Positions 38,829-52,375 of a stretch of DNA of 64,000 bases are shown here, in pieces. The first letter of the stretch is position 1, and the number at the start of each line of letters is the position of its first letter. A model generated the notes under the pieces. The model saw only the letters and a program-made list of their open reading frames with translations. It was not told the DNA's origin and searched no databases. Source of the DNA: Syntrophorhabdaceae bacterium (lineage in GTDB: Bacteria > Desulfobacterota > Syntrophorhabdia > Syntrophorhabdales > Syntrophorhabdaceae); contig OY762209.1 of assembly GCA_963665295.1 (NCBI GenBank), forward strand, positions 288,001 through 352,000. Direction: 5' to 3'. Position numbers and translations under genes: made by a program.

Positions 38829-39476
38829 ATGAAGAAGGTAGCCGGGGCGGGATCGGGGAACGGGAAAGTCCCCATGGGATTTACCCGTGAGACGTTTCCG
38901 CGGGGCATTCACATGTGCTACATATACAGCGATGAAGTCGAGCGAAACAAGACCATCCTCCAATTCCTCGAGAGCGGGCTGGCAAACGGAGAAAAGGCGG
39001 CTTACTTCGCCGACGTGCCATCCATACCCGAACTGGAGAGATACGGGGATGCCCTGGGTCTCACCAGGCTCTGCGAGAAACACGGAGAGCGCTTCTGTCT
39101 GGCGACAACCCGTGATGTGTATTATCCCGACGGGACATTCGTACCCGACGAGATGCTCGACAGGCTGGACACGTTCTACACGGAAAGTATCCAGGAGGGG
39201 TTCACGGGGGTGAGGGTGGTGGGGGAGGCTTCCTGGTTGGCCGGGGGCGTGCCGGGCTCTTCCCGGTTCATGGAGTACGAAGCCCGCGTCAACAATCTGA
39301 AATGCCCTGTCAACGCGATCTGCCTGTATGATGCACACCTCTTTGACGGCGCGACGCTGCGTGACGTATTGGCCGTCCATCCCATGATAGTCGTCCAAAA
39401 ACAGATAGTCAAGAATCCCTACTACATAAAGTCCGCCTGGCTCTTGAGGAAATACCTGGGACTCGATCGGGGTTGA
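38829..39476 (+). CDS. Stand-alone MEDS-domain sensory protein
   Basis: HMCYIY, FLESGL..GEK, RVVGEASW, YEARVN, ICLYD and HP. Confidence 0.85.
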   Translation: MKKVAGAGSGNGKVPMGFTRETFPRGIHMCYIYSDEVERNKTILQFLESGLANGEKAAYFADVPSIPELERYGDALGLTRLCEKHGERFCLATTRDVYYPDGTFVPDEMLDRLDTFYTESIQEGFTGVRVVGEASWLAGGVPGSSRFMEYEARVNNLKCPVNAICLYDAHLFDGATLRDVLAVHPMIVVQKQIVKNPYYIKSAWLLRKYLGLDRG

Positions 39477-39610: not shown

Positions 39611-40414
39611 TCAGTCCTTGTCCGGCGCAGGCGCCTGACCCCGCTCTTCCTTTGGGACGATGAGGCCTTCCGACACCCGGTGCAGGGCATCGAGGAATCG
39701 GGCATAAAGCCCTTCTTCCTGTTCCTTGCCCAGGGCTGTTTCCGCGTCCCGGAGCCCGTGCAACTCGCGAAGCATTTCCGGACTGAGACCGAACTGGTGG
39801 GCGAAGGCCTCGATGATGTTCTTCTCGCTCCCGTAATTGCCGCCTCTCGCGGACAACAGGATTTCGAGGGTTTCGAAGAAGCGCTTCGCCTGTTGGGCCA
39901 TGATGGCGGTGAGTTGCTGCCCGTTGTTCACAAGGTAATGACGCCGCATTCTGAGCAACATATTCATGAGGCGCTGGCGGATACGGAGAAGGGCATAGTC
40001 CGTTTTCACTTCCAGGTCCGCCAGGAAGTCTATTCCATAAAGGAGTCTGTACCGGTTCTTCATGGCCATATACTTGAGCGGAAAGATATCGACGGTGGCA
40101 CGGACGTCCTCCTCGGTGAGAAAGAAGGGCGCAAGGCTTCCCTTCCGTCCTCGCGCCACAGGCTCAACAAGCTCCTTTAAGGCGGAGAGGTCGATCCGGT
40201 CGACGAGGATGAGCAGGTTCACGTCGCTCCTGCCCGGACGATAGGCTTCCGACGTTGCGCTTCCGTACAGGATTGCCGACTTGACGGACCCGTGCGGGAG
40301 GCCCCTCAGTGCGGAGAGAAGTTCCTCCAGGGCACCCCTTTCCTCTTCTCCCAGCTTCGTTCCTGTCAGTGCGCCATCACGTAATGAATTCATTTTTTCC
40401 CTCTCTTGTGTCAC
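39611..40414 (-). CDS. Nucleotidyltransferase-fold protein
   Basis: LYGSA...SDVNLLI (the second Asp of DxD is Asn), then DIFPLKY and LLYG.D. Confidence 0.72.
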   Translation of the reverse strand: MTQEREKMNSLRDGALTGTKLGEEERGALEELLSALRGLPHGSVKSAILYGSATSEAYRPGRSDVNLLILVDRIDLSALKELVEPVARGRKGSLAPFFLTEEDVRATVDIFPLKYMAMKNRYRLLYGIDFLADLEVKTDYALLRIRQRLMNMLLRMRRHYLVNNGQQLTAIMAQQAKRFFETLEILLSARGGNYGSEKNIIEAFAHQFGLSPEMLRELHGLRDAETALGKEQEEGLYARFLDALHRVSEGLIVPKEERGQAPAPDKD

Positions 40415-40420
40415 GGATAA

Positions 40421-41503
40421 TCACCCGCAACCCCCGTTCGCCGCGGCCCGGGGCACGTTCTCCTCCCTCCGGCGGGCCAACCAGCATCCCGGATCGGCGC
40501 AAAACGGTGAGCCGGTCATGGCGTGGGACAGGCATCTAAGCCCGCCCCGGCAGACTTCTGCGTAAAAACATTCCCCACAGCCCTCGGCGATCCGGTCCCT
40601 CTCCCGGAGGCTCACGAGGAAATCACTTTCGCCATACAGCCGGGCAAGGGGGGCGCTCATGACATTCCCTATGGGAACCGCCATTCTTCTGCACGGGTAG
40701 AGGGTGCCGTCCGCCCCAAGGGCGAGAAGGGTGCCTCCTGCCCCGCAGCGATAGGGCTCACCCCCGCCCACGATGAACTGGAGAGCGCGGCCCATGGCTA
40801 TCTCCGTGTGTCCAAGCCATGATCTTTCCGCCTTTTCTCTGGCCTTTTGCAGTATTTCAAAAAACTCTTTTGTCTCTTCGGGAGAAAGGGCCTTATCCGC
40901 CATGGCGGCGCCTCCGCCTGCGGGAATCAAGCGGTCCGCCCACACCCGCGCCACGCCGAGCTTGGTCCCTGCGTCGGCCACTTCTTTGAATTCCCGGTAG
41001 TTATCCTTGTGCGCCGTGAAAGAGATGTAGGCCCTCAACTTCTCTTTGCGTAAACAATCCACGCCGCGGAGGACCCGTTCAAAATCTCCCTTTCCCCTTA
41101 TCCTGTCATGGGTGGTCTTTCCGCCCTCCATGCTGACCTGAACGAAGGCCGGTTTCAACACCCTGAGACGGACTGCCGTTGCCTTGTCCAGAAAACTGCC
41201 GTTGCACAGGATCGCAAAGCTGAAGGTATCCCTGTGAGCCGACAGGGCCTCGAGGAAGGGAATAAAGTCTTCCCTCATGAAAGGTTCGCCGCCCGTGACA
41301 TTGATGTGTCCCCGCCTGATAGCCCGGGCCGCAAGGAGTTGCCTGTATTGTTCCACGACTTCGAGGAGTTCGCCGAACTTCAGCTCGGGGCCGGAATAGG
41401 TTTCCTGGTAACAGTGGCTGCACCGAAGATTGCAGCGATCCGTGACGTGCCATTGAAGGAGCAGCCTTCCCGGCCTTACGGGTCTTTTTCCCTTGTCTTT
41501 CAT
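40421..41503 (-). CDS. Radical SAM/SPASM protein
   Basis: QWHVTDRCNLRCSHCY and TGGEP, then SPASM CGAG...DGTLYPC...GN...CGEC.....CRGGLRC...DPGC. Confidence 0.93.
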   Translation of the reverse strand: MKDKGKRPVRPGRLLLQWHVTDRCNLRCSHCYQETYSGPELKFGELLEVVEQYRQLLAARAIRRGHINVTGGEPFMREDFIPFLEALSAHRDTFSFAILCNGSFLDKATAVRLRVLKPAFVQVSMEGGKTTHDRIRGKGDFERVLRGVDCLRKEKLRAYISFTAHKDNYREFKEVADAGTKLGVARVWADRLIPAGGGAAMADKALSPEETKEFFEILQKAREKAERSWLGHTEIAMGRALQFIVGGGEPYRCGAGGTLLALGADGTLYPCRRMAVPIGNVMSAPLARLYGESDFLVSLRERDRIAEGCGECFYAEVCRGGLRCLSHAMTGSPFCADPGCWLARRREENVPRAAANGGCG

Positions 41504-41523
41504 CACCCGGTCCTGGTAGTCTC

Positions 41524-42483
41524 TCAGCCACCGCATCCGCCGCACCCTCCTCCGCACCCTCCTCCGCATCCGCCGCCGCCGCAACCACTTCCCCCGCAAC
41601 CGCCCCCTCCGACGGAGTCGCCCGACGTCCATCCGCTGCACCCTCCGCAGGACCAGCCTGAGGGCCTGTGGAAAGCCGCCTGGTATGCCCCGTATCCGTG
41701 GGCAGCCCCGAGGACCGCGGGACCGAACACGGCAACGGCGAAGGCCGGGTCTATCCCCGTCAGGGCGCCTCTTTTTGCCTTCTCCCTGACCCACCCGAAA
41801 TCCGTGGCCAGTTTATCGAGGTACTTCTTCCCGAGGCACGAGATCTGTGACCACGGTCTGAGTGACAGGGCAAGAACGACCACGGATGCGATCAATAAGA
41901 GAAAGAGAAGGGACACGGGTTTTCCCCGTGCCAAGCCTAAGTGTATCTTGATCAAGCCGGGCAGGAGCATCACCACCAGGACCGCCGCCGAGACAAGGCG
42001 GCCCCTCGTCATATCGGGACCGGTCTTCATGAGGCGCAGTTCCGTCAACTCCCGCGCCGCCAACCGGAGGTGGGGATCCAGGTTTTCCTTCAATTCCGCC
42101 GACCGGAAAAGTTCGGATGATTTCCTCTTCCTGTCCAGGAACCGGTAAATTATGCGTGTCTCGGGTTTGAGGCTTCTCATCTTCATGGACAGTTCAATCT
42201 TTCCCGCTCCCCCTTGTGTGAGGGTTACGCCGGCGCCCGCCCCGCTTACCACGACCAGGCCTTTGTGCCAGAGTTGGAAGACCGCCGACCTGATGACGCC
42301 GGGATAACCTGCCCTGAGGTAAGACAAGGATATCGGATCCAGACGGGTAAGGTCCGGCATGGGATACTCCAGGCTGCTGTCCGCGCGAAGCCGCCATCGG
42401 CCTATCAGGACGCAGAGCGCAACAAACCCCGCGTAATAAAAAAGAAACAAGGGACCCGGTATCAGCCTGATCATTTCAATCAC
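41524..42483 (-). CDS. TIGR04222-like membrane protein with Cys/Gly low-complexity C-terminal tail
   Basis: PGPLFLFYYA, LDPISLSYLRAG, GLARGKPVSLL and AVAVFG, then the tail SCGGCSGWTSGDSVGGGGCGGSGCGGGGCGGGCGGGCGGCGG. A GAGGA RBS precedes GTG 42483. Confidence 0.85.
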   Translation of the reverse strand: MIEMIRLIPGPLFLFYYAGFVALCVLIGRWRLRADSSLEYPMPDLTRLDPISLSYLRAGYPGVIRSAVFQLWHKGLVVVSGAGAGVTLTQGGAGKIELSMKMRSLKPETRIIYRFLDRKRKSSELFRSAELKENLDPHLRLAARELTELRLMKTGPDMTRGRLVSAAVLVVMLLPGLIKIHLGLARGKPVSLLFLLLIASVVVLALSLRPWSQISCLGKKYLDKLATDFGWVREKAKRGALTGIDPAFAVAVFGPAVLGAAHGYGAYQAAFHRPSGWSCGGCSGWTSGDSVGGGGCGGSGCGGGGCGGGCGGGCGGCGG

Positions 42484-42683: not shown

Positions 42684-42733
42684 TTGACAAATCCGCGCAG
42701 GGGGAATAAGTTTAATACTGACCGTACGGTATT
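42684..42733 (+). promoter_or_regulatory. tetR promoter with adjacent palindromic operator
   Basis: TTGACA (42684)-N17-TAAGTT (42707), then the imperfect palindrome AATACTGACCGTACGGTATT at 42714-42733. Confidence 0.6.
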
Positions 42734-42747
42734 CATGGGAGGTTTTA

Positions 42748-43389
42748 GTGAAGAGAGCGGGTGGTATAGAGACAGAGGAGAAGATCATACAGGCAGCCCT
42801 GGAACTTTTCGTGCGTAAAGGGTATCACGGTACGTCCATCACCGACATCATGAACAAGGTTGGGCTATCCAAGGGCTCCCTGTATGCCCACTTCAAGAGT
42901 AAAGGGGAACTCCTGCTGCGGATTATCGATGGATACAAGGTAAGATACCTTGACGAGATGACTCGCCTTGCGAAGGATGGTGAAGGAGATGCCCTCGACA
43001 AGCTCCACCAGTGCATCAGCTTCAGCGCCCGATTCGCGGCCGAGCACCAGAGCCTGTGCGGATTCCTGATATGCATCACCACAGAGCTGAAGGCGGATAT
43101 TGAGTTCGAGCCGGTGCTCAAGGCCGTCAACCACCACTACCAGAGACTGTTCAGCGGGATCATACGCCAGGGGATTACTCAGGGTGTAGTGGACAAAGGA
43201 ACAGACCCGGGTATGGCCGCTTTGACTTTCATGGCTCTCCATGGCGGAATGCTGCATCAATGGGCTCTTAACCGGAATATGATCGATGCGGGGGAGTATG
43301 TGAGAACCTTCCGAAAGACGTTCATTTACGGCCTGGCAAGCGATAAGGGAAGGAATATGTGCGATGAAAGGACATGGCGATCGAGGTGA
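42748..43389 (+). CDS. TetR/AcrR-family regulator
   Basis: IIQAALELFVRKGYHGTSITDI...GLSKGSLYAHFKSK. Confidence 0.95.
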   Translation: MKRAGGIETEEKIIQAALELFVRKGYHGTSITDIMNKVGLSKGSLYAHFKSKGELLLRIIDGYKVRYLDEMTRLAKDGEGDALDKLHQCISFSARFAAEHQSLCGFLICITTELKADIEFEPVLKAVNHHYQRLFSGIIRQGITQGVVDKGTDPGMAALTFMALHGGMLHQWALNRNMIDAGEYVRTFRKTFIYGLASDKGRNMCDERTWRSR

Positions 43390-44345: not shown

Positions 44346-46388
44346 ATGAAGAAAGATGTAGCGGCAGTCTGTTTCGCCTCCGTGAAGCTGTTTGTTCTTG
44401 CCCTTCTCATTATGGGCATGTCGGGAACGGCGGTTTTTGCGGCTACCTACACCATATCAGGCACCATAAAAGCATCGGGCACAGGGCTCGCGGGTGTCAC
44501 CGTTGCCCTTTCAGGTACGGCAAGCTCCTCCACCACCACGGACAGCAGCGGCGCGTACAGTTTTTCGGGCCTGTCGAAGGGCAGCTATACCGTGACGCCG
44601 ACCATGGACAAGTACACATTCAGTCCCGCGAAGAAGACAGTGACCATCAATTCTTCGGATTCCAAGGGAAACAACTTCACCGCCAAGTCCTCGGTCCACG
44701 TCTTATCGGGCACCATAAAGGCATCGGGCACAGGGCTCGCGGGTGTCACCGTTGCCCTTTCAGGTACGGCAAGCTCCTCCACGACCACGGACAGCAGCGG
44801 CGCGTACAGTTTTTCGGGCCTGTCGAAGGGCAGCTATACCGTGACGCCGACCATGGGCGGATACACATTCAGTCCCGTGAAGAAAACGGTGACCATCAAT
44901 TCTTCGGATTCCAAGGGAAACAACTTCACCGCCAAGTCCTCGGTCCACATCATATCAGGCACCATCAAGGCATCGGGCACAGGGCTCGCGGGTGTCACCG
45001 TTGCCCTTTCAGGTACGGCAAGCTCCTCCACCACCACCACGGACAGCAGCGGCGCGTACAGTTTTTCGGGCCTATCGAAGGGCAGCTATACCGTGACGCC
45101 GACCATGGGCGGATACACATTCAGTCCCGTGAAGAAGACGGTGAACATCAATTCTTCGGATTCCAAGGGAAACAACTTCACCGCCAAATGGAAAGTGACG
45201 GCATATTATCAAAACGGCGGAACGGCGGTAAAGACCGGTCAGGCCTATGGATCGACCACAGACGATGAGTCGGGCGTGGAAGTGATCAATTCCGGCGTGT
45301 TGAACCTTTCCTACTCCACGGTTACCACGAAGGGCAACACGTCCTCCCCCGATGACAGCAGCTTCTACGGTCTCAATGCCGGTGTTCTCGCCACATCCGC
45401 GAGCGCCATCAACCTCTCGAATGTCACCGTCTCCACCACGGGCATAGGGGCCAACGGCGTCTTTGCCACAGGGGAGGGAACGACGATCACCCTCGACAAT
45501 GTGACCATAAACTGCACGGGTCAGTTGGGCCACGGCGTCGATGCCACTCTTGGCGGCACGCTTATCCTCAATGACGTGGATATCACTACCGGGCCCGGGG
45601 CAAATTCAGCGGCCATCGCCACGGACCGGGGGAGCGGCACCATCACCGTGACAGGGGGCACCATGACCACCTCCGGGACCGATGCGCCCGGTATCTATTC
45701 CACGGGAGTCATCACCGTTACGGGCTCCGCCATCAGCGCCACCGAATCGGAGGCCGCCGTCATTGAAGGGTCAAACTCTATTGTCCTCACCAATACGACC
45801 CTCTCCGGAGGAAAGAAGCGGGGAGTCATGATCTACCAGAGTATGTCCGGCGATGCCGACGGTTCGGAAGGCACTTTCACCATGACCGGAGGCTCCCTGT
45901 CCGCCTCCGTGGGTCCCCTCTTTTACGTCACCAACGCCACGGGGACAATCTCTCTTGCGGACGTTGCGGCATCGGCCGCTTCCGGCACCCTTATCAACGC
46001 GGCCGCCGACACCTGGGGCACAAGCGGCAGTAACGGCGGGACAGTGGTGTTTACGGGCACAAGCCAGGTCCTGAGCGGCAATATTGTTGCCGACAACATC
46101 AGTTCCGTAGCCCTCACCCTGCAAACGGCATCCTCGCTCCAGGGCACGATCAACGCGGGGGATACTGCCAAGGCAGTAAATGTTACCCTGGATTCCACGA
46201 GCAGTTGGACGGTGACGGCAAATTCCTATATCACCTGTCTCTCTGATACGGACGGAATCTCCGGCACCGCCGTCAACAACGTGCACGCCTCCTCCGGCAT
46301 CACGGTTTACTACAGCAACGCTTCCTGCGCCGCCCTCGGCGGAAAGACATACACCCTGAACGGCGGTGGTTCCCTGGTGCCGCGATGA
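44346..46388 (+). CDS. Secreted protein: three carboxypeptidase-regulatory/CnaB-like repeats + beta-helix-like C-terminal region
   Basis: Signal peptide, 3x ISGTIKASGTGLAGVTVALSG...TTTDSSGAYSFSGL..GSYTVTP, and a Thr/Gly/Ser-rich beta-solenoid-like tail. Confidence 0.82.
   Translation: MKKDVAAVCFASVKLFVLALLIMGMSGTAVFAATYTISGTIKASGTGLAGVTVALSGTASSSTTTDSSGAYSFSGLSKGSYTVTPTMDKYTFSPAKKTVTINSSDSKGNNFTAKSSVHVLSGTIKASGTGLAGVTVALSGTASSSTTTDSSGAYSFSGLSKGSYTVTPTMGGYTFSPVKKTVTINSSDSKGNNFTAKSSVHIISGTIKASGTGLAGVTVALSGTASSSTTTTDSSGAYSFSGLSKGSYTVTPTMGGYTFSPVKKTVNINSSDSKGNNFTAKWKVTAYYQNGGTAVKTGQAYGSTTDDESGVEVINSGVLNLSYSTVTTKGNTSSPDDSSFYGLNAGVLATSASAINLSNVTVSTTGIGANGVFATGEGTTITLDNVTINCTGQLGHGVDATLGGTLILNDVDITTGPGANSAAIATDRGSGTITVTGGTMTTSGTDAPGIYSTGVITVTGSAISATESEAAVIEGSNSIVLTNTTLSGGKKRGVMIYQSMSGDADGSEGTFTMTGGSLSASVGPLFYVTNATGTISLADVAASAASGTLINAAADTWGTSGSNGGTVVFTGTSQVLSGNIVADNISSVALTLQTASSLQGTINAGDTAKAVNVTLDSTSSWTVTANSYITCLSDTDGISGTAVNNVHASSGITVYYSNASCAALGGKTYTLNGGGSLVPR
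44452..45188 (+). repeat. Three near-identical ~249-bp coding repeats
   Basis: GCATCGGGCACAGGGCTCGCGGGTGTCACCGTTGCCCTTTCAGG recurs at ~44472, 44722 and 44970. The third copy has one extra ACC codon. Confidence 0.92.
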
Positions 46389-50535: not shown

Positions 50536-52020
50536 CTACCTCCCTCCGTCAGGTCTCCCCTGCGGCTGTTGGTGTTGCTGTCCCTGGTGTTGCTGCCCCT
50601 GAGGCGGTCTCTGAGGCTGCTGCCCCTGAGGCTGCCTTTGAGGCTGCTGAGCCTGGGGCGGTCTCTGAGGCTGAGTCTGTGGTGGTCTTTGAGGCTGAGC
50701 CTGAGGTTGGACCTGAGGCGGTCTTTGAGGTTGCTGAGCCTGAGGCGGTCTTTGAGGTTGCTGAGCCTGGGGCGGTCTCTGAGGCTGAGTCTGTGGTGGT
50801 CTTTGAGGCTGAGCCTGAGGTTGGACCTGAGGCGGTCTTTGAGGTTGCTGAGCCTGAGGCGGTCTCTGAGGTTGAGCCTGTGGTTGGACCTGAGGCTGCC
50901 TTTGAGGTTGCTGAGCCTGGGGCGGTCTCTGAGGCTGAGTCTGTGGTTGGACCTGAGGCTGGGACGGTCTCTGAGGTTGCTGAGCCTGAGGCGGTCTTTG
51001 AGGCTGAGTCTGTGGTTGGACCTGAGGCTGATTACCCTGAGGCTGCCTTTGAGGGTGTTGTCCCTGGGGCTGCCTTTGAGGCTGATTACCCTGAGGCTGA
51101 ACCTGGGGCTGTCCCTGAGGTTTATGTCCTTGTGGCTGTCCCTGAGGCTGATGTCCCTGGGGTGGCCTTTGAGGGTGTTGTCCCTGAGGCTGTCCCTGGA
51201 ATTGTCCCTGAGGCTGGTGTCCTTGTGGCGGACGTCCCTGAGGCTGGTGTCCTTGTGGCGGACGTCCCTGAGGCTGGTGCCCCTGGAATTGTCCCTGAGG
51301 CTGGTGTCGCTGAATATCGGGCCTCTGTCGATATTCCTGCTCCCTTTGCAGCCTTAGTTCCTGTCTCTGTTGTTGCGGCCGAGGGCGATAACCCTGGACA
51401 CCCCAGGTTCCTTGCCTTTCCCAATGTCGGTCATTATGCCAGCTCCGCCAGTTGTGCTCAAGCTGCCGGTTAGGAATCCGTTCATAATTCCACCGGTGCC
51501 CATACCAATCATGGCTTCTGTAGTGTCCTCTCCAACCCGGGTCTACATCGAAATAGAAAGTCGGAACCCGGTTATAATAACCCCAGCCCCTATTGTAATG
51601 GGGCGAACGATACCAGCGACCTTCCCATAGACGCCACCAGAAACCGTTCCAGAAAAACAGGTCTGCGTCTACATCAGGCGCAACATACACGCCGCTCGCG
51701 TCGGGCACTACTATCACGTCCGGAGGTGCTTGAATTGCGATCGGCGGCGGCAAAGGAGCAGGTACTCCGGCTCCGGACCCCCCCGTCCCTTGTACGCCCG
51801 TTGCGGCCGGCGGCAATTCCTGTGCGGGAGTTGTCGCTGCCGTCGGTTCCTGGGCCGGAATCCCCCCTGCCGTCGGTTCCTGGGCGGGAGTCCCTGCTGC
51901 CGCTGGGTCCTGTGCGGGTGTTTCCGCGGGTTTCGCCGGCTCCTGCGATCGGTTGCAGCCGATCAAGGTAAAGGTCGCAAGCAACGTCGCCGCTGCAAAT
52001 AACACTATTAACTTCTTCAT
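50536..52020 (-). CDS. Lipoprotein with PAQEP repeats, a Trp/Tyr/Arg-rich domain and a long Gln/Pro low-complexity tail
   Basis: MKKLIVL...LIGC lipobox with RBS, FFWNGFWWRLWEGRWYRS, and about 250 aa of QPQRPPQ-type repeats. Confidence 0.8.
   Translation of the reverse strand: MKKLIVLFAAATLLATFTLIGCNRSQEPAKPAETPAQDPAAAGTPAQEPTAGGIPAQEPTAATTPAQELPPAATGVQGTGGSGAGVPAPLPPPIAIQAPPDVIVVPDASGVYVAPDVDADLFFWNGFWWRLWEGRWYRSPHYNRGWGYYNRVPTFYFDVDPGWRGHYRSHDWYGHRWNYERIPNRQLEHNWRSWHNDRHWERQGTWGVQGYRPRPQQQRQELRLQREQEYRQRPDIQRHQPQGQFQGHQPQGRPPQGHQPQGRPPQGHQPQGQFQGQPQGQHPQRPPQGHQPQGQPQGHKPQGQPQVQPQGNQPQRQPQGQHPQRQPQGNQPQVQPQTQPQRPPQAQQPQRPSQPQVQPQTQPQRPPQAQQPQRQPQVQPQAQPQRPPQAQQPQRPPQVQPQAQPQRPPQTQPQRPPQAQQPQRPPQAQQPQRPPQVQPQAQPQRPPQTQPQRPPQAQQPQRQPQGQQPQRPPQGQQHQGQQHQQPQGRPDGGR
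50575..51305. repeat. Degenerate coding microrepeat array built on CTGAGG/TTGAGG
   Basis: Dozens of imperfect 21-27-bp units encoding Q/P repeats on the minus strand. Confidence 0.85.
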
Positions 52021-52375
52021 GTAATTTCCCCTCCTTATCTCTTTCTGTCTCTTTGGTGAAGGCTTTGTTCTCGCGCCAAACCGGTGCGAGAAGCAAAATA
52101 CCGTCACCCGATCCGGCGGGACGGGCGAACGAAAACCCTTTACAGTATCCCTTTCATCTCTACAAAGGATCGGCGCGGGGTCAAGGGGGAGGGACATTTT
52201 TTCATCCAGTGTATTCTCATTCACCGGACCACTGAGCCAGCCTTTCCGACTGCCGTCTCCTTATACTGTATTATCAGAAATATGCCGTCAAATTACAACA
52301 ATTATTGTGTTCGGGCTTTTTGCGGAAAGGCCGCGGTGGAACCCGAAGGGGCCCTCGGAGAGGGAACTTGAGAAA

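Follow-up and report, generated by a model that had tools for sequence, protein, structure and literature searches.

A clade of radical SAM/SPASM enzymes linked to Cys/Gly-tailed TIGR04222 membrane proteins, with a predicted docking site on the membrane protein

Described systems close to the locus

SbtM (TIGR04082) is the radical S-adenosylmethionine (SAM)/SPASM enzyme of the selenobacteriocin system, which was reportedly described by Lewis et al. in 2021 (reviewed in PMC9204691); its targets are Gly-Cys(Sec)-Gly, where Sec stands for selenocysteine. Here we analyze a comparable enzyme, gene B, which is encoded together with a TIGR04222 membrane protein ending in a Cys/Gly tail (gene A) and a nucleotidyltransferase-fold protein (gene C) in a 64,000-nucleotide stretch of Syntrophorhabdaceae bacterium DNA (the window; GenBank assembly GCA_963665295.1, contig OY762209.1, positions 288,001 to 352,000 of the forward strand). 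Gene B shares the Y-x-C and C-R-[RK] motifs with SbtM and belongs to the same wider branch, and members of the SbtM family are also encoded behind TIGR04222 genes (loci L173 and L183; labels with L and G denote loci and genomes). Unlike SbtM, gene B lacks an N-terminal extension of ~170 amino acids (aa) and has one SPASM Cys fewer, and its putative substrate is a leaderless membrane protein that bears no sign of selenocysteine, the tail reading frames stopping at TAA, TAG or TGA.

Two other groups of SPASM enzymes resemble gene B in part. The ACGX-repeat system (TIGR04340) pairs an enzyme of the same wider branch, devoid of a recognition element (RRE) for peptides that are made by ribosomes and then modified post-translationally (RiPPs), with a precursor made of small-residue-Cys-Gly repeats. 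However, this precursor is small and soluble, gene B scores 124.1 bits against a TIGR04340 cut-off of 400, and an ACGX-repeat peptide was not found near gene B. We know of no characterization of the ACGX system. The enzymes anSME and QhpD act on Cys of full-length proteins, namely enzyme subunits, and in this respect resemble the role proposed for gene B, from which anSME is distant (E about 4e−15); their targets are not low-complexity tails of membrane proteins.

The closest described relatives of gene A have been paired with a different enzyme. According to Antoine et al. 2025 (PMC12452194), MNIO (DUF692, PF05114) genes lie directly downstream of genes for the same membrane family with the same tail, and modification of the latter is proposed. 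MNIO is a non-heme iron oxidase rather than a radical SAM enzyme, and the tail is placed there in the periplasm, whereas the present model has it in the cytoplasm. Bufferins (PMC11626156) carry copper-binding 5-thiooxazoles produced from Cys by MNIOs, that is, the product and function proposed here, but they are secreted peptides with signals for the Sec pathway, made by MNIO plus DUF2063 instead of a membrane-anchored tail served by a radical SAM enzyme. A literature search, with limited coverage of subscription papers, yielded no description of a radical SAM enzyme paired with a TIGR04222 tail. In the accessible literature, TIGR04222 is mentioned by Antoine et al. 2025, by the preprint of that study and by a Pseudonocardia genome paper, which notes a predicted precursor. 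Radical SAM figures in the references only of the accessible part of Antoine et al., SPASM and TIGR04082 being absent from that part, although the supplementary figures or neighbour table could list such neighbours. Genes A and B make up a conserved and apparently unpublished pair that would carry out protein maturation, a form of radical SAM chemistry of the RiPP type. The genomic evidence for the substrate assignment is strong, and we infer the chemistry and function of the pair.

The enzyme clade, its genomic linkage and the tailed membrane protein

Gene B matches Pfam Radical_SAM (PF04055; 78.4 bits, cut-off 29.5) from residue 20 onward, with C24, C28 and C31 as the SAM-cluster Cys, and also passes the SPASM models TIGR04085 (40.1 bits, cut-off 27) and PF13186 (22.3 bits, cut-off 21.5). 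This confirms the CxxxCxxC motif and the SPASM domain pointed out by an earlier interpretation of the DNA letters (hereafter, the sequence-only reading). The SPASM domain has seven Cys with C-x2-C-x5-C-x5-C spacing, and all but one of 116 clade proteins retain the full set. No PqqD match indicative of an RRE was found in gene B, and a radical SAM domain starting at residue 20 leaves no space for one. None of the NCBIfam equivalogs among its 25 best matches is passed: the top one, SbtM, reaches 142.5 bits (cut-off 350), and PapB (96.5, cut-off 340), StsB (84.2, cut-off 625) and the ACGX model are all below their cut-offs. Homology searches collected 1150 proteins at E<=1e−40 from 8000 candidates, the best 120 of which are 52−97% identical and come from several phyla; 116 rows were aligned. 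In the tree (LG+G4, 36 rows, nine redundant or long rows left out) both the gene B clade and a separate SbtM clade have 100/100 support. A 95/95 branch separates AhbD-like enzymes, MftC and WgkB from a set that comprises the gene B clade, SbtM, the ACGX enzyme and a group found next to CxxCxxC peptides. The radical SAM/SPASM clade to which gene B belongs lacks both a name and a curated model.

Two further radical SAM groups were encountered alongside this clade. An orphan radical SAM/SPASM group (L187 = G000:C1:3158186-3159334; L032, L033, L035-L037, L039), present in one copy in the window genome, scores 230−270 bits to the clade profile and shows no conserved neighbours in these loci. In a neighbouring group (L041:1689-3152, L044, L034) the radical SAM gene precedes a PqqD-like gene and a short peptide ending in CxxCxxCxxC, upstream of a very large open reading frame (ORF); this group passes no equivalog.

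Across all loci fetched, full-length matches to the clade profile divide into 17 loci at or above 392 bits and 106 at or below 273 bits. A Cys/Gly-tailed ORF lies within 1.5 kb in 17/17 full-length clade loci, compared with 2/106 of the other radical SAM/SPASM loci, so the co-occurrence on which the sequence-only reading hinged does hold. The 17 loci comprise the window itself, two loci retrieved with membrane-protein queries (L021, L116) and 14 retrieved with enzyme queries. Matches spanning fewer than 280 profile positions were excluded, among them three clade-like fragments (L047, L054 and L060), the latter two of which miss their upstream DNA. A search for related loci with gene B as single query produced one clade locus among 19. 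In the reverse direction, a TIGR04222 gene is present in four of the 301 genomes of the window's phylum, and in all four the clade enzyme is downstream, once with a small intervening gene. The clade is rare, being found in 4/151, 1/301 and 3/200 genomes of three samples, counts that represent floors (6−13 candidates scored per genome, with G597 left out of scoring).

The tail carriers in the 17 loci are 15 proteins of the TIGR04222 type, one 136-aa protein and one 73-aa peptide. Two TIGR04222-type carriers from Clostridia-like loci (L112, L114) score below the cut-off, and the one in L028 is cut by the contig end. The 136-aa protein (L001) has a single membrane helix and is encoded on the opposite strand. 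The 73-aa Gly/Cys peptide of genome G094 (L108/L151) resides in a classical RiPP cluster, and its clade enzyme is nested within the clade in the tree; the cluster holds two radical SAM enzymes, so that the assignment of enzyme to residue is ambiguous. The tail is the only part common to the three different carriers. A putative precursor gene beside a dedicated maturase, a general feature of RiPP systems, is seen in 17/17 loci. Leader peptide, RRE, protease and exporter are absent in the window and present for the G094 clade member. Most clade loci have no peptidase, and no other conserved neighbour able to supply a substrate was found in them. Two carriers of unusual architecture were also observed. 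In L027:2290-6050, on a contig with archaeal-looking neighbours (heterodisulfide-reductase-like, presenilin-like), a TPR-fused TIGR04222 protein of 641 aa is accompanied by a nucleotidyltransferase-like gene and the clade enzyme. In L152:568-2178 (G047), TIGR04222 is fused to a secreted-looking N-terminal domain of ~250 aa, has one tail Cys and is followed by the clade enzyme.

Gene A scores 90.5 bits against the TIGR04222 hidden Markov model (cut-off 43), which establishes the family membership proposed by the sequence-only reading, and it has the expected transmembrane segments and low-complexity Gly/Ser/Cys C-terminus; the eight-Cys tail quoted in that reading matches the sequence exactly. 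An initial word-based homologue search, superseded by the profile search, had given two proteins. Pfam DUF2207_C is detected at E<=0.1 in 13 of 16 aligned gene A homologues (best 8e−10), the window protein itself having no match. By length the tail is unique among the stop-to-stop frames of the genome, one shorter Cys-ending frame also having passed the filter, and, in keeping with the earlier claim, no small precursor ORF was found near genes A to C. Among 150 TIGR04222 representatives of unspecified genomic context, 145 have a complete C-terminal end; Cys occurs in 139 of these 145 tails, Gly or Ser precedes 683 of their 696 Cys, C-x2-C (190) and C-x3-C (140) spacings dominate the Cys pairs, and C-x-x-C-G terminates 109 tails. 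Residues past the last Cys vary (G, D, S, N), with a Pro-rich extension in L108. Selenocysteine read-through of the tail TGA was considered and rejected: 16 loci show no conserved extension and most homologues end with TAA or TAG.

In the AlphaFold model of gene A (predicted local distance difference test, pLDDT, 79.8 from 16 rows) three long helices coincide with hydrophobic segments, a weak fourth hydrophobic stretch forms short broken helices, and the tail is disordered (pLDDT < 50 at model residues 271−316). Regions rich in Lys/Arg tend to stay on the cytoplasmic side of the membrane (the positive-inside rule). The Lys/Arg bias of gene A favours the segments past helix 1 and past helix 3, the large domain included, as cytoplasmic; in this model the tail is probably cytoplasmic and accessible to gene B. 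The soluble part may resemble soluble GOLPH3 (3kn1_A; Z 7.9, root-mean-square deviation 6.0, 163 aligned residues, model residues 44−273 including the fourth stretch), a middling similarity that Foldseek places at ranks 3 and 9 without significance (E 1.9−3.1). The structure search with gene A found no similar solved structure, and ESM Atlas returned unnamed clusters only. The possibility that the domain has an RRE-like fold was rejected, there being no such structural match.

Predicted docking, likely chemistry and alternatives

The complex model of genes A and B scored 0.65, the best of three controls scoring 0.00, and passed a score mark. Among reference cases, 116 of 157 solved complexes attain this mark, as do 2 of 215 mismatched pairs; these figures are only roughly valid for the alignments used. 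The runs share at least 20% of contacts, and the pLDDT of the partner is at least 73. On gene A, the confident contacts fall past helix 3, on an F-x-W motif and where an I-D-P motif begins; on the enzyme they involve residues 243, 246−249 and 313−317. In the clade enzymes F243 is conserved in 115/116 and G248 in 111/116. The model thus predicts that gene B docks directly on gene A via the F-x-W motif. It seems unlikely that the complex passed through a memorized structure, because no solved structure resembling gene A was found. Of 14 TIGR04222 proteins linked to the clade, nine have the F-x-W motif, compared with none of 15 others; this count is not independent, because the linked proteins are also related to one another and group together on the TIGR04222 tree.

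The nature of the presumed modification may be approached by considering which other enzymes occupy the position of gene B. For comparison we used 16 TIGR04222 loci drawn from two genome sets, 251 from the phylum to which a Planctomycetia record belongs and 151 from that of a Myxococcota record. The gene behind TIGR04222 encodes MNIO in nine of them and a radical SAM enzyme in two; five have neither within ~1.5 kb, three of these being devoid of a Cys tail. The two radical SAM enzymes (L173, L183) score 458 and 474 bits, above the SbtM cut-off, and are nested inside SbtM and outside the gene B clade, though they do not have the N-terminal extension of SbtM. The 13 kb surrounding them revealed no SbtA-like peptide or selenopeptide. 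At least six switches of partner enzyme are needed on the TIGR04222 tree. SbtM-linked precursors share the Gly/Ser-Cys context with TIGR04222 tails. One SbtM-linked precursor (L163), in which numerous Gly/Ser-Cys repeats accompany just one Sec, appears intermediate between selenobacteriocins and TIGR04222 tails.

SbtM turns Gly-Cys(Sec) into a thio(seleno)oxazole, with a loss of 4 Da, absorbance at 304 nm and retained reactivity to iodoacetamide, as stated in PMC9204691; the same source proposes an open auxiliary site for SbtM too and describes Cys C-beta oxidation as common to SbtM and anSME. A band at ~305 nm is common to SbtM and MNIO products (PMC12668002). In the scheme that we propose, gene B would dock on the F-x-W motif of gene A, in place of a leader peptide and RRE, and would oxidize Cys of the probably cytoplasmic Gly/Cys tail: hydrogen abstraction at Cys C-beta and two oxidations involving the carbonyl of the preceding Gly/Ser might yield 5-thiooxazoles, by analogy with SbtM, the outcome being a membrane-tethered metal-binding tail. 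Sequence evidence makes it quite probable that the gene A tail is the substrate of gene B and is modified. Should it be modified, analogy narrowly favours a thiooxazole as the product; with the uncertainty of modification included, the thiooxazole falls somewhat short of probable, and we hold the complete scheme of docking, conversion of tail Cys to 5-thiooxazoles and metal-binding tethered tail with the same tentativeness. Binding of copper or another soft metal by the modified tail is possible though doubtful. Equally doubtful is the broader proposal that the TIGR04222 tail is a cytoplasmic poly-thiooxazole made interchangeably by oxygen-dependent MNIOs, SbtM-family enzymes and the gene B clade, the last of these using an internal F-x-W site on a GOLPH3-like domain, and that a pseudo-nucleotidyltransferase common to TPM-LemA operons reads the tail, the unit acting as a membrane metal buffer or sensor. 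It should be noted that a thiooxazole would still react with iodoacetamide, so a readout combining −2 Da with thiol loss, as suggested in the sequence-only reading, could miss it.

Several observations weigh against this scheme. The complex model gives no confident contact to the tail, 5 of the 14 clade-linked proteins are without F-x-W, and a TIGR04222 domain is absent from the L001 and L108 carriers. The truncated clade-like gene L047 shows no upstream tail. The Cys-tailed L169 and L170 have neither MNIO within ~1.5 kb nor a radical SAM motif within 12 kb. Gene B is 27% identical to SbtM, scores well under the SbtM model cut-off as given above, and lacks the extra Cys preceding the first SPASM ligand of SbtM; its clade is not sister to SbtM, which pairs with the ACGX enzyme, and the tree carries a long-branch warning. 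The seven SPASM Cys fit thioether-forming enzymes as well, and a thiooxazole product of the TIGR04222-linked MNIOs is itself putative. Finally, the weakly hydrophobic fourth segment could take the tail across the membrane, and Antoine et al. (PMC12452194) predict a periplasmic tail for other members.

Gene B could instead join the sulfur of tail Cys to C-alpha or C-beta of nearby Gly/Ser, forming sacti- or ranthi-type thioethers (−2 Da each) in small rings. The alignment predicts that seven SPASM Cys, with ligand roles presumably as in CteB, leave one open auxiliary site, as in the latter enzyme. The dominant C-x2-C and C-x3-C spacings of the tails and the top, though weak, solved-structure matches of gene B, SkfB (E 9e−21) and CteB (2e−18), point the same way. 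On the other hand, an open site is proposed for SbtM as well, the PapB, SCIFF and StsB models score well below SbtM and ACGX on gene B, and two other families take the position of gene B elsewhere, MNIO and SbtM. We therefore rank the thiooxazole as the likeliest product and the thioether, fairly unlikely in itself, as second. Another possibility is that the tail remains unmodified, its C-x-x-C pairs binding metal or an Fe-S cluster and anchoring or supplying an enzyme that acts on another substrate. Contacts predicted on the folded domain rather than the tail would suit this explanation, as would the lack of MNIO in a third of TIGR04222 genomes (PMC12452194). So would the relationship of TIGR04222 to DUF2207_C together with the Cys-free Gly-rich tails of TPM proteins beside gene C homologues, which imply a tail role without modification. 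Nevertheless, three families of peptide-Cys enzymes (two shown, one inferred) replace one another at this position, a classical RiPP cluster whose precursor has a Gly/Cys core also contains the clade enzyme, and no conserved neighbour offers an alternative substrate, so that we judge an unmodified tail unlikely.

A little less likely still is other radical chemistry at the tail, such as conversion of Cys to a thioaldehyde or formylglycine, desulfuration, backbone cleavage releasing the tail or a change of the C-terminal Gly. The Cys C-beta oxidation common to SbtM and anSME, the final C-x-x-C-G as the most conserved tail part and the scarcity of peptidases in clade loci, which would let the enzyme itself release the tail, are compatible with it; the variable residues after the last Cys argue against terminal chemistry, and a direct sign of any such reaction was not seen. 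Finally, it is very improbable that gene B is a heme (Ahb/NirJ-type) or other cofactor enzyme in an incidental neighbourhood, an outcome that the sequence-only reading had named as fatal to its proposal. In favour of such a role, the top matches include the AhbC, NirJ and AhbD models, and a database homologue bears the name 'heme d1 biosynthesis protein'. Yet these models give 118−124 bits against cut-offs of 500−650, the genome encodes AhbC (698 bits, cut-off 650) and an AhbD-like protein (438, cut-off 500) elsewhere, the tree sets the clade apart from AhbD-like enzymes, and the wider loci, all 17 tail-linked, show no heme genes. Ahb/NirJ identity is thereby largely refuted.

Gene C, genomic context and implications

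The AlphaFold model of gene C has the Pol-beta/kanamycin nucleotidyltransferase fold (Foldseek matches AAD(9), AadA and KNTase, E 3e−6 to 6e−5), and the protein retains the G-S motif and several conserved Arg/Asp/Glu. It gives no Pfam or NCBIfam matches, and the ESM Atlas share of NTP_transf_2 is 14−16%. The D-x-D/E metal pair is lost: at least 90% of 31 homologues have Asn at the second position, and the Asp at the first is not fixed either. The sequence-only reading was right about an adjacent co-oriented nucleotidyltransferase-like gene. Gene C falls outside the core gene set of the enzyme, and its family adjoins TIGR04222 in 4/17 clade loci (some with short flanks). It does so also in 9/16 other TIGR04222 loci, upstream of the TIGR04222 gene whether MNIO, SbtM or no enzyme follows. 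The usual home of the family, present in 40/151 genomes of the window's phylum, is next to a Gly-rich-tailed membrane protein of the TPM type (27/29 loci, no modifying enzyme seen), with a LemA-like gene in 18/29; TPM and LemA are Pfam-confirmed in two loci and assigned by likeness in the others. In the window, by contrast, the partner is TIGR04222 with tail Cys and LemA is elsewhere in the genome. Gene C is likely, from sequence comparison, a non-catalytic partner of Gly-tailed membrane proteins and not of gene B. An active nucleotidyltransferase adenylylating the tail or membrane protein would be compatible with thiooxazole formation by gene B, and the fold, the G-S motif and the repeated proximity to TIGR04222 speak for it; with the metal Asp replaced or variable and the TPM-type loci free of modifying enzymes, we deem such activity quite improbable. 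The operon TPM(Gly tail)-nucleotidyltransferase-like(D-x-N)-LemA (L122-L150), common in the window's phylum, is not described in any paper that we found.

The three genes are co-oriented with 20-bp and 6-bp gaps, as first described, if starts at 41503 and 40414 are used. Gene B, however, probably begins at ATG 41536, inside the final tail codons (13-nt overlap with gene A), with a GGAGG-type site ahead. Relatives favour this start: in L021 the interval from tail stop to conserved core is free of in-frame starts, one being present at the equivalent offset, and in L116 an in-frame start is 3 nt further in. For gene C, ATG 40393 is the more likely start, having a better ribosome site and giving a length that matches homologues. 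No sigma-70-type promoter was found for the operon, and terminator-like sites are at chance level. Control of the operon by the divergent TetR, as suggested in the sequence-only reading, is unsupported: TetR homologues occur in loci of the window genome and in one non-clade locus only, and the sole candidate operator is just before tetR. The palindrome has four further genome sites within three mismatches, none of them in the window. The whole stretch was found in five public sequencing runs, with no RNA run among those listed. A plasmid search gave zero matches at 1e−40, and a viral contig search just two weak, unrelated radical SAM matches.

MNIO was found in none of 11 clade genomes (completeness not stated for five). 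Strong heme-copper oxidase matches (PF00115, at least 450 bits) occur in all eight MNIO-linked genomes tested (of nine), in both SbtM-linked genomes and in 2/10 clade genomes. Relative to MNIOs, which we take to be oxygen-dependent, the gene B clade is plausibly an oxygen-independent substitute, although this is only a tendency, confounded by lineage: heme-copper oxidase matches of any strength are present in 4/10 clade genomes, the window genome included, and in both SbtM-linked ones.

Three other genes of the window deserve mention. A stand-alone MEDS sensory-domain gene (38829-39476) runs convergently to gene C in a region with several PAS-domain kinases. A secreted protein (44346-46388) has three near-identical beta-rich repeats of ~80 aa and then a Thr/Gly-rich beta-helix-like region. 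A lipoprotein-like ORF (50536-52224) has a long Gln/Pro-rich repeat C-terminus.

Table 1. Coordinates of features in the window and, where a locus label is given, in comparison loci
Feature	Position	Strand	Remarks
Gene A, TIGR04222 membrane protein (DUF2207_C-related)	41524..42483	minus	likely substrate; ORF 42483-41524, 319 aa
Predicted transmembrane helix 1	42385..42456	minus	hydropathy and model helix 7-30
Predicted transmembrane hairpin, helices 2 and 3	41860..42021	minus	hydropathy and AlphaFold
F-x-W motif, predicted radical SAM docking site	41791..41805	minus	lowest-error contacts in complex model
Second predicted contact patch, start of I-D-P motif	41752..41760	minus	complex model
Tail, 47 aa Gly/Ser/Cys, 8 Cys (7 Gly-Cys, 1 Ser-Cys)	41527..41667	minus	predicted disordered, likely modified core
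Gene B, full extent	40421..41536	minus	favoured start 41536, alternative 41503
Gene B ORF from the later start	41503-40421	minus	360 aa
CxxxCxxC motif	41411..41434	minus	invariant in 116 aligned homologues
Clade-specific loop ahead of SPASM, F243-E249	40757..40777	minus	predicted contact to gene A F-x-W motif
SPASM domain, 7 conserved Cys	40484..40747	minus	TIGR04085
Gene C, Pol-beta/kanamycin nucleotidyltransferase fold, D-x-N for D-x-D	39611..40393	minus	favoured start ATG 40393, alternative 40414; AlphaFold pLDDT 90.9
Gene C ORF from the earlier start	40414-39611	minus	267 aa
Imperfect palindrome, candidate TetR self-operator	42716..42733	plus	15 nt ahead of tetR
Divergent TetR-family gene	42748..43389	plus	Pfam TetR_N
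SbtM-family radical SAM enzyme (G362)	L173:2349-3440		directly behind nucleotidyltransferase-like and TIGR04222 genes
SbtM-family radical SAM enzyme (G923)	L183:2266-3282		directly behind nucleotidyltransferase-like and TIGR04222 genes
G094 RiPP cluster	L151:7492-17103		HprK-like kinase, S24/S26 peptidase, two PqqD/RREs, second radical SAM enzyme, NTP_transf_5, ABC exporter, methyltransferase

These results bring to notice an enzyme family that is widespread yet not covered by any curated model. If the proposed scheme is true, RiPP-type radical SAM chemistry would reach the tail of an integral membrane protein and keep the product attached, and the substrate would be recognized through a folded domain instead of a leader peptide. 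An RRE-free enzyme installing metal-binding heterocycles on Gly-Cys repeats would, in that case, also be a useful tool. The swapping of MNIO, SbtM and the gene B clade behind TIGR04222 genes predicts a specific product, with −4 Da per Cys and absorbance at ~304 nm, and thereby makes the purpose of the TIGR04222 tail directly testable.

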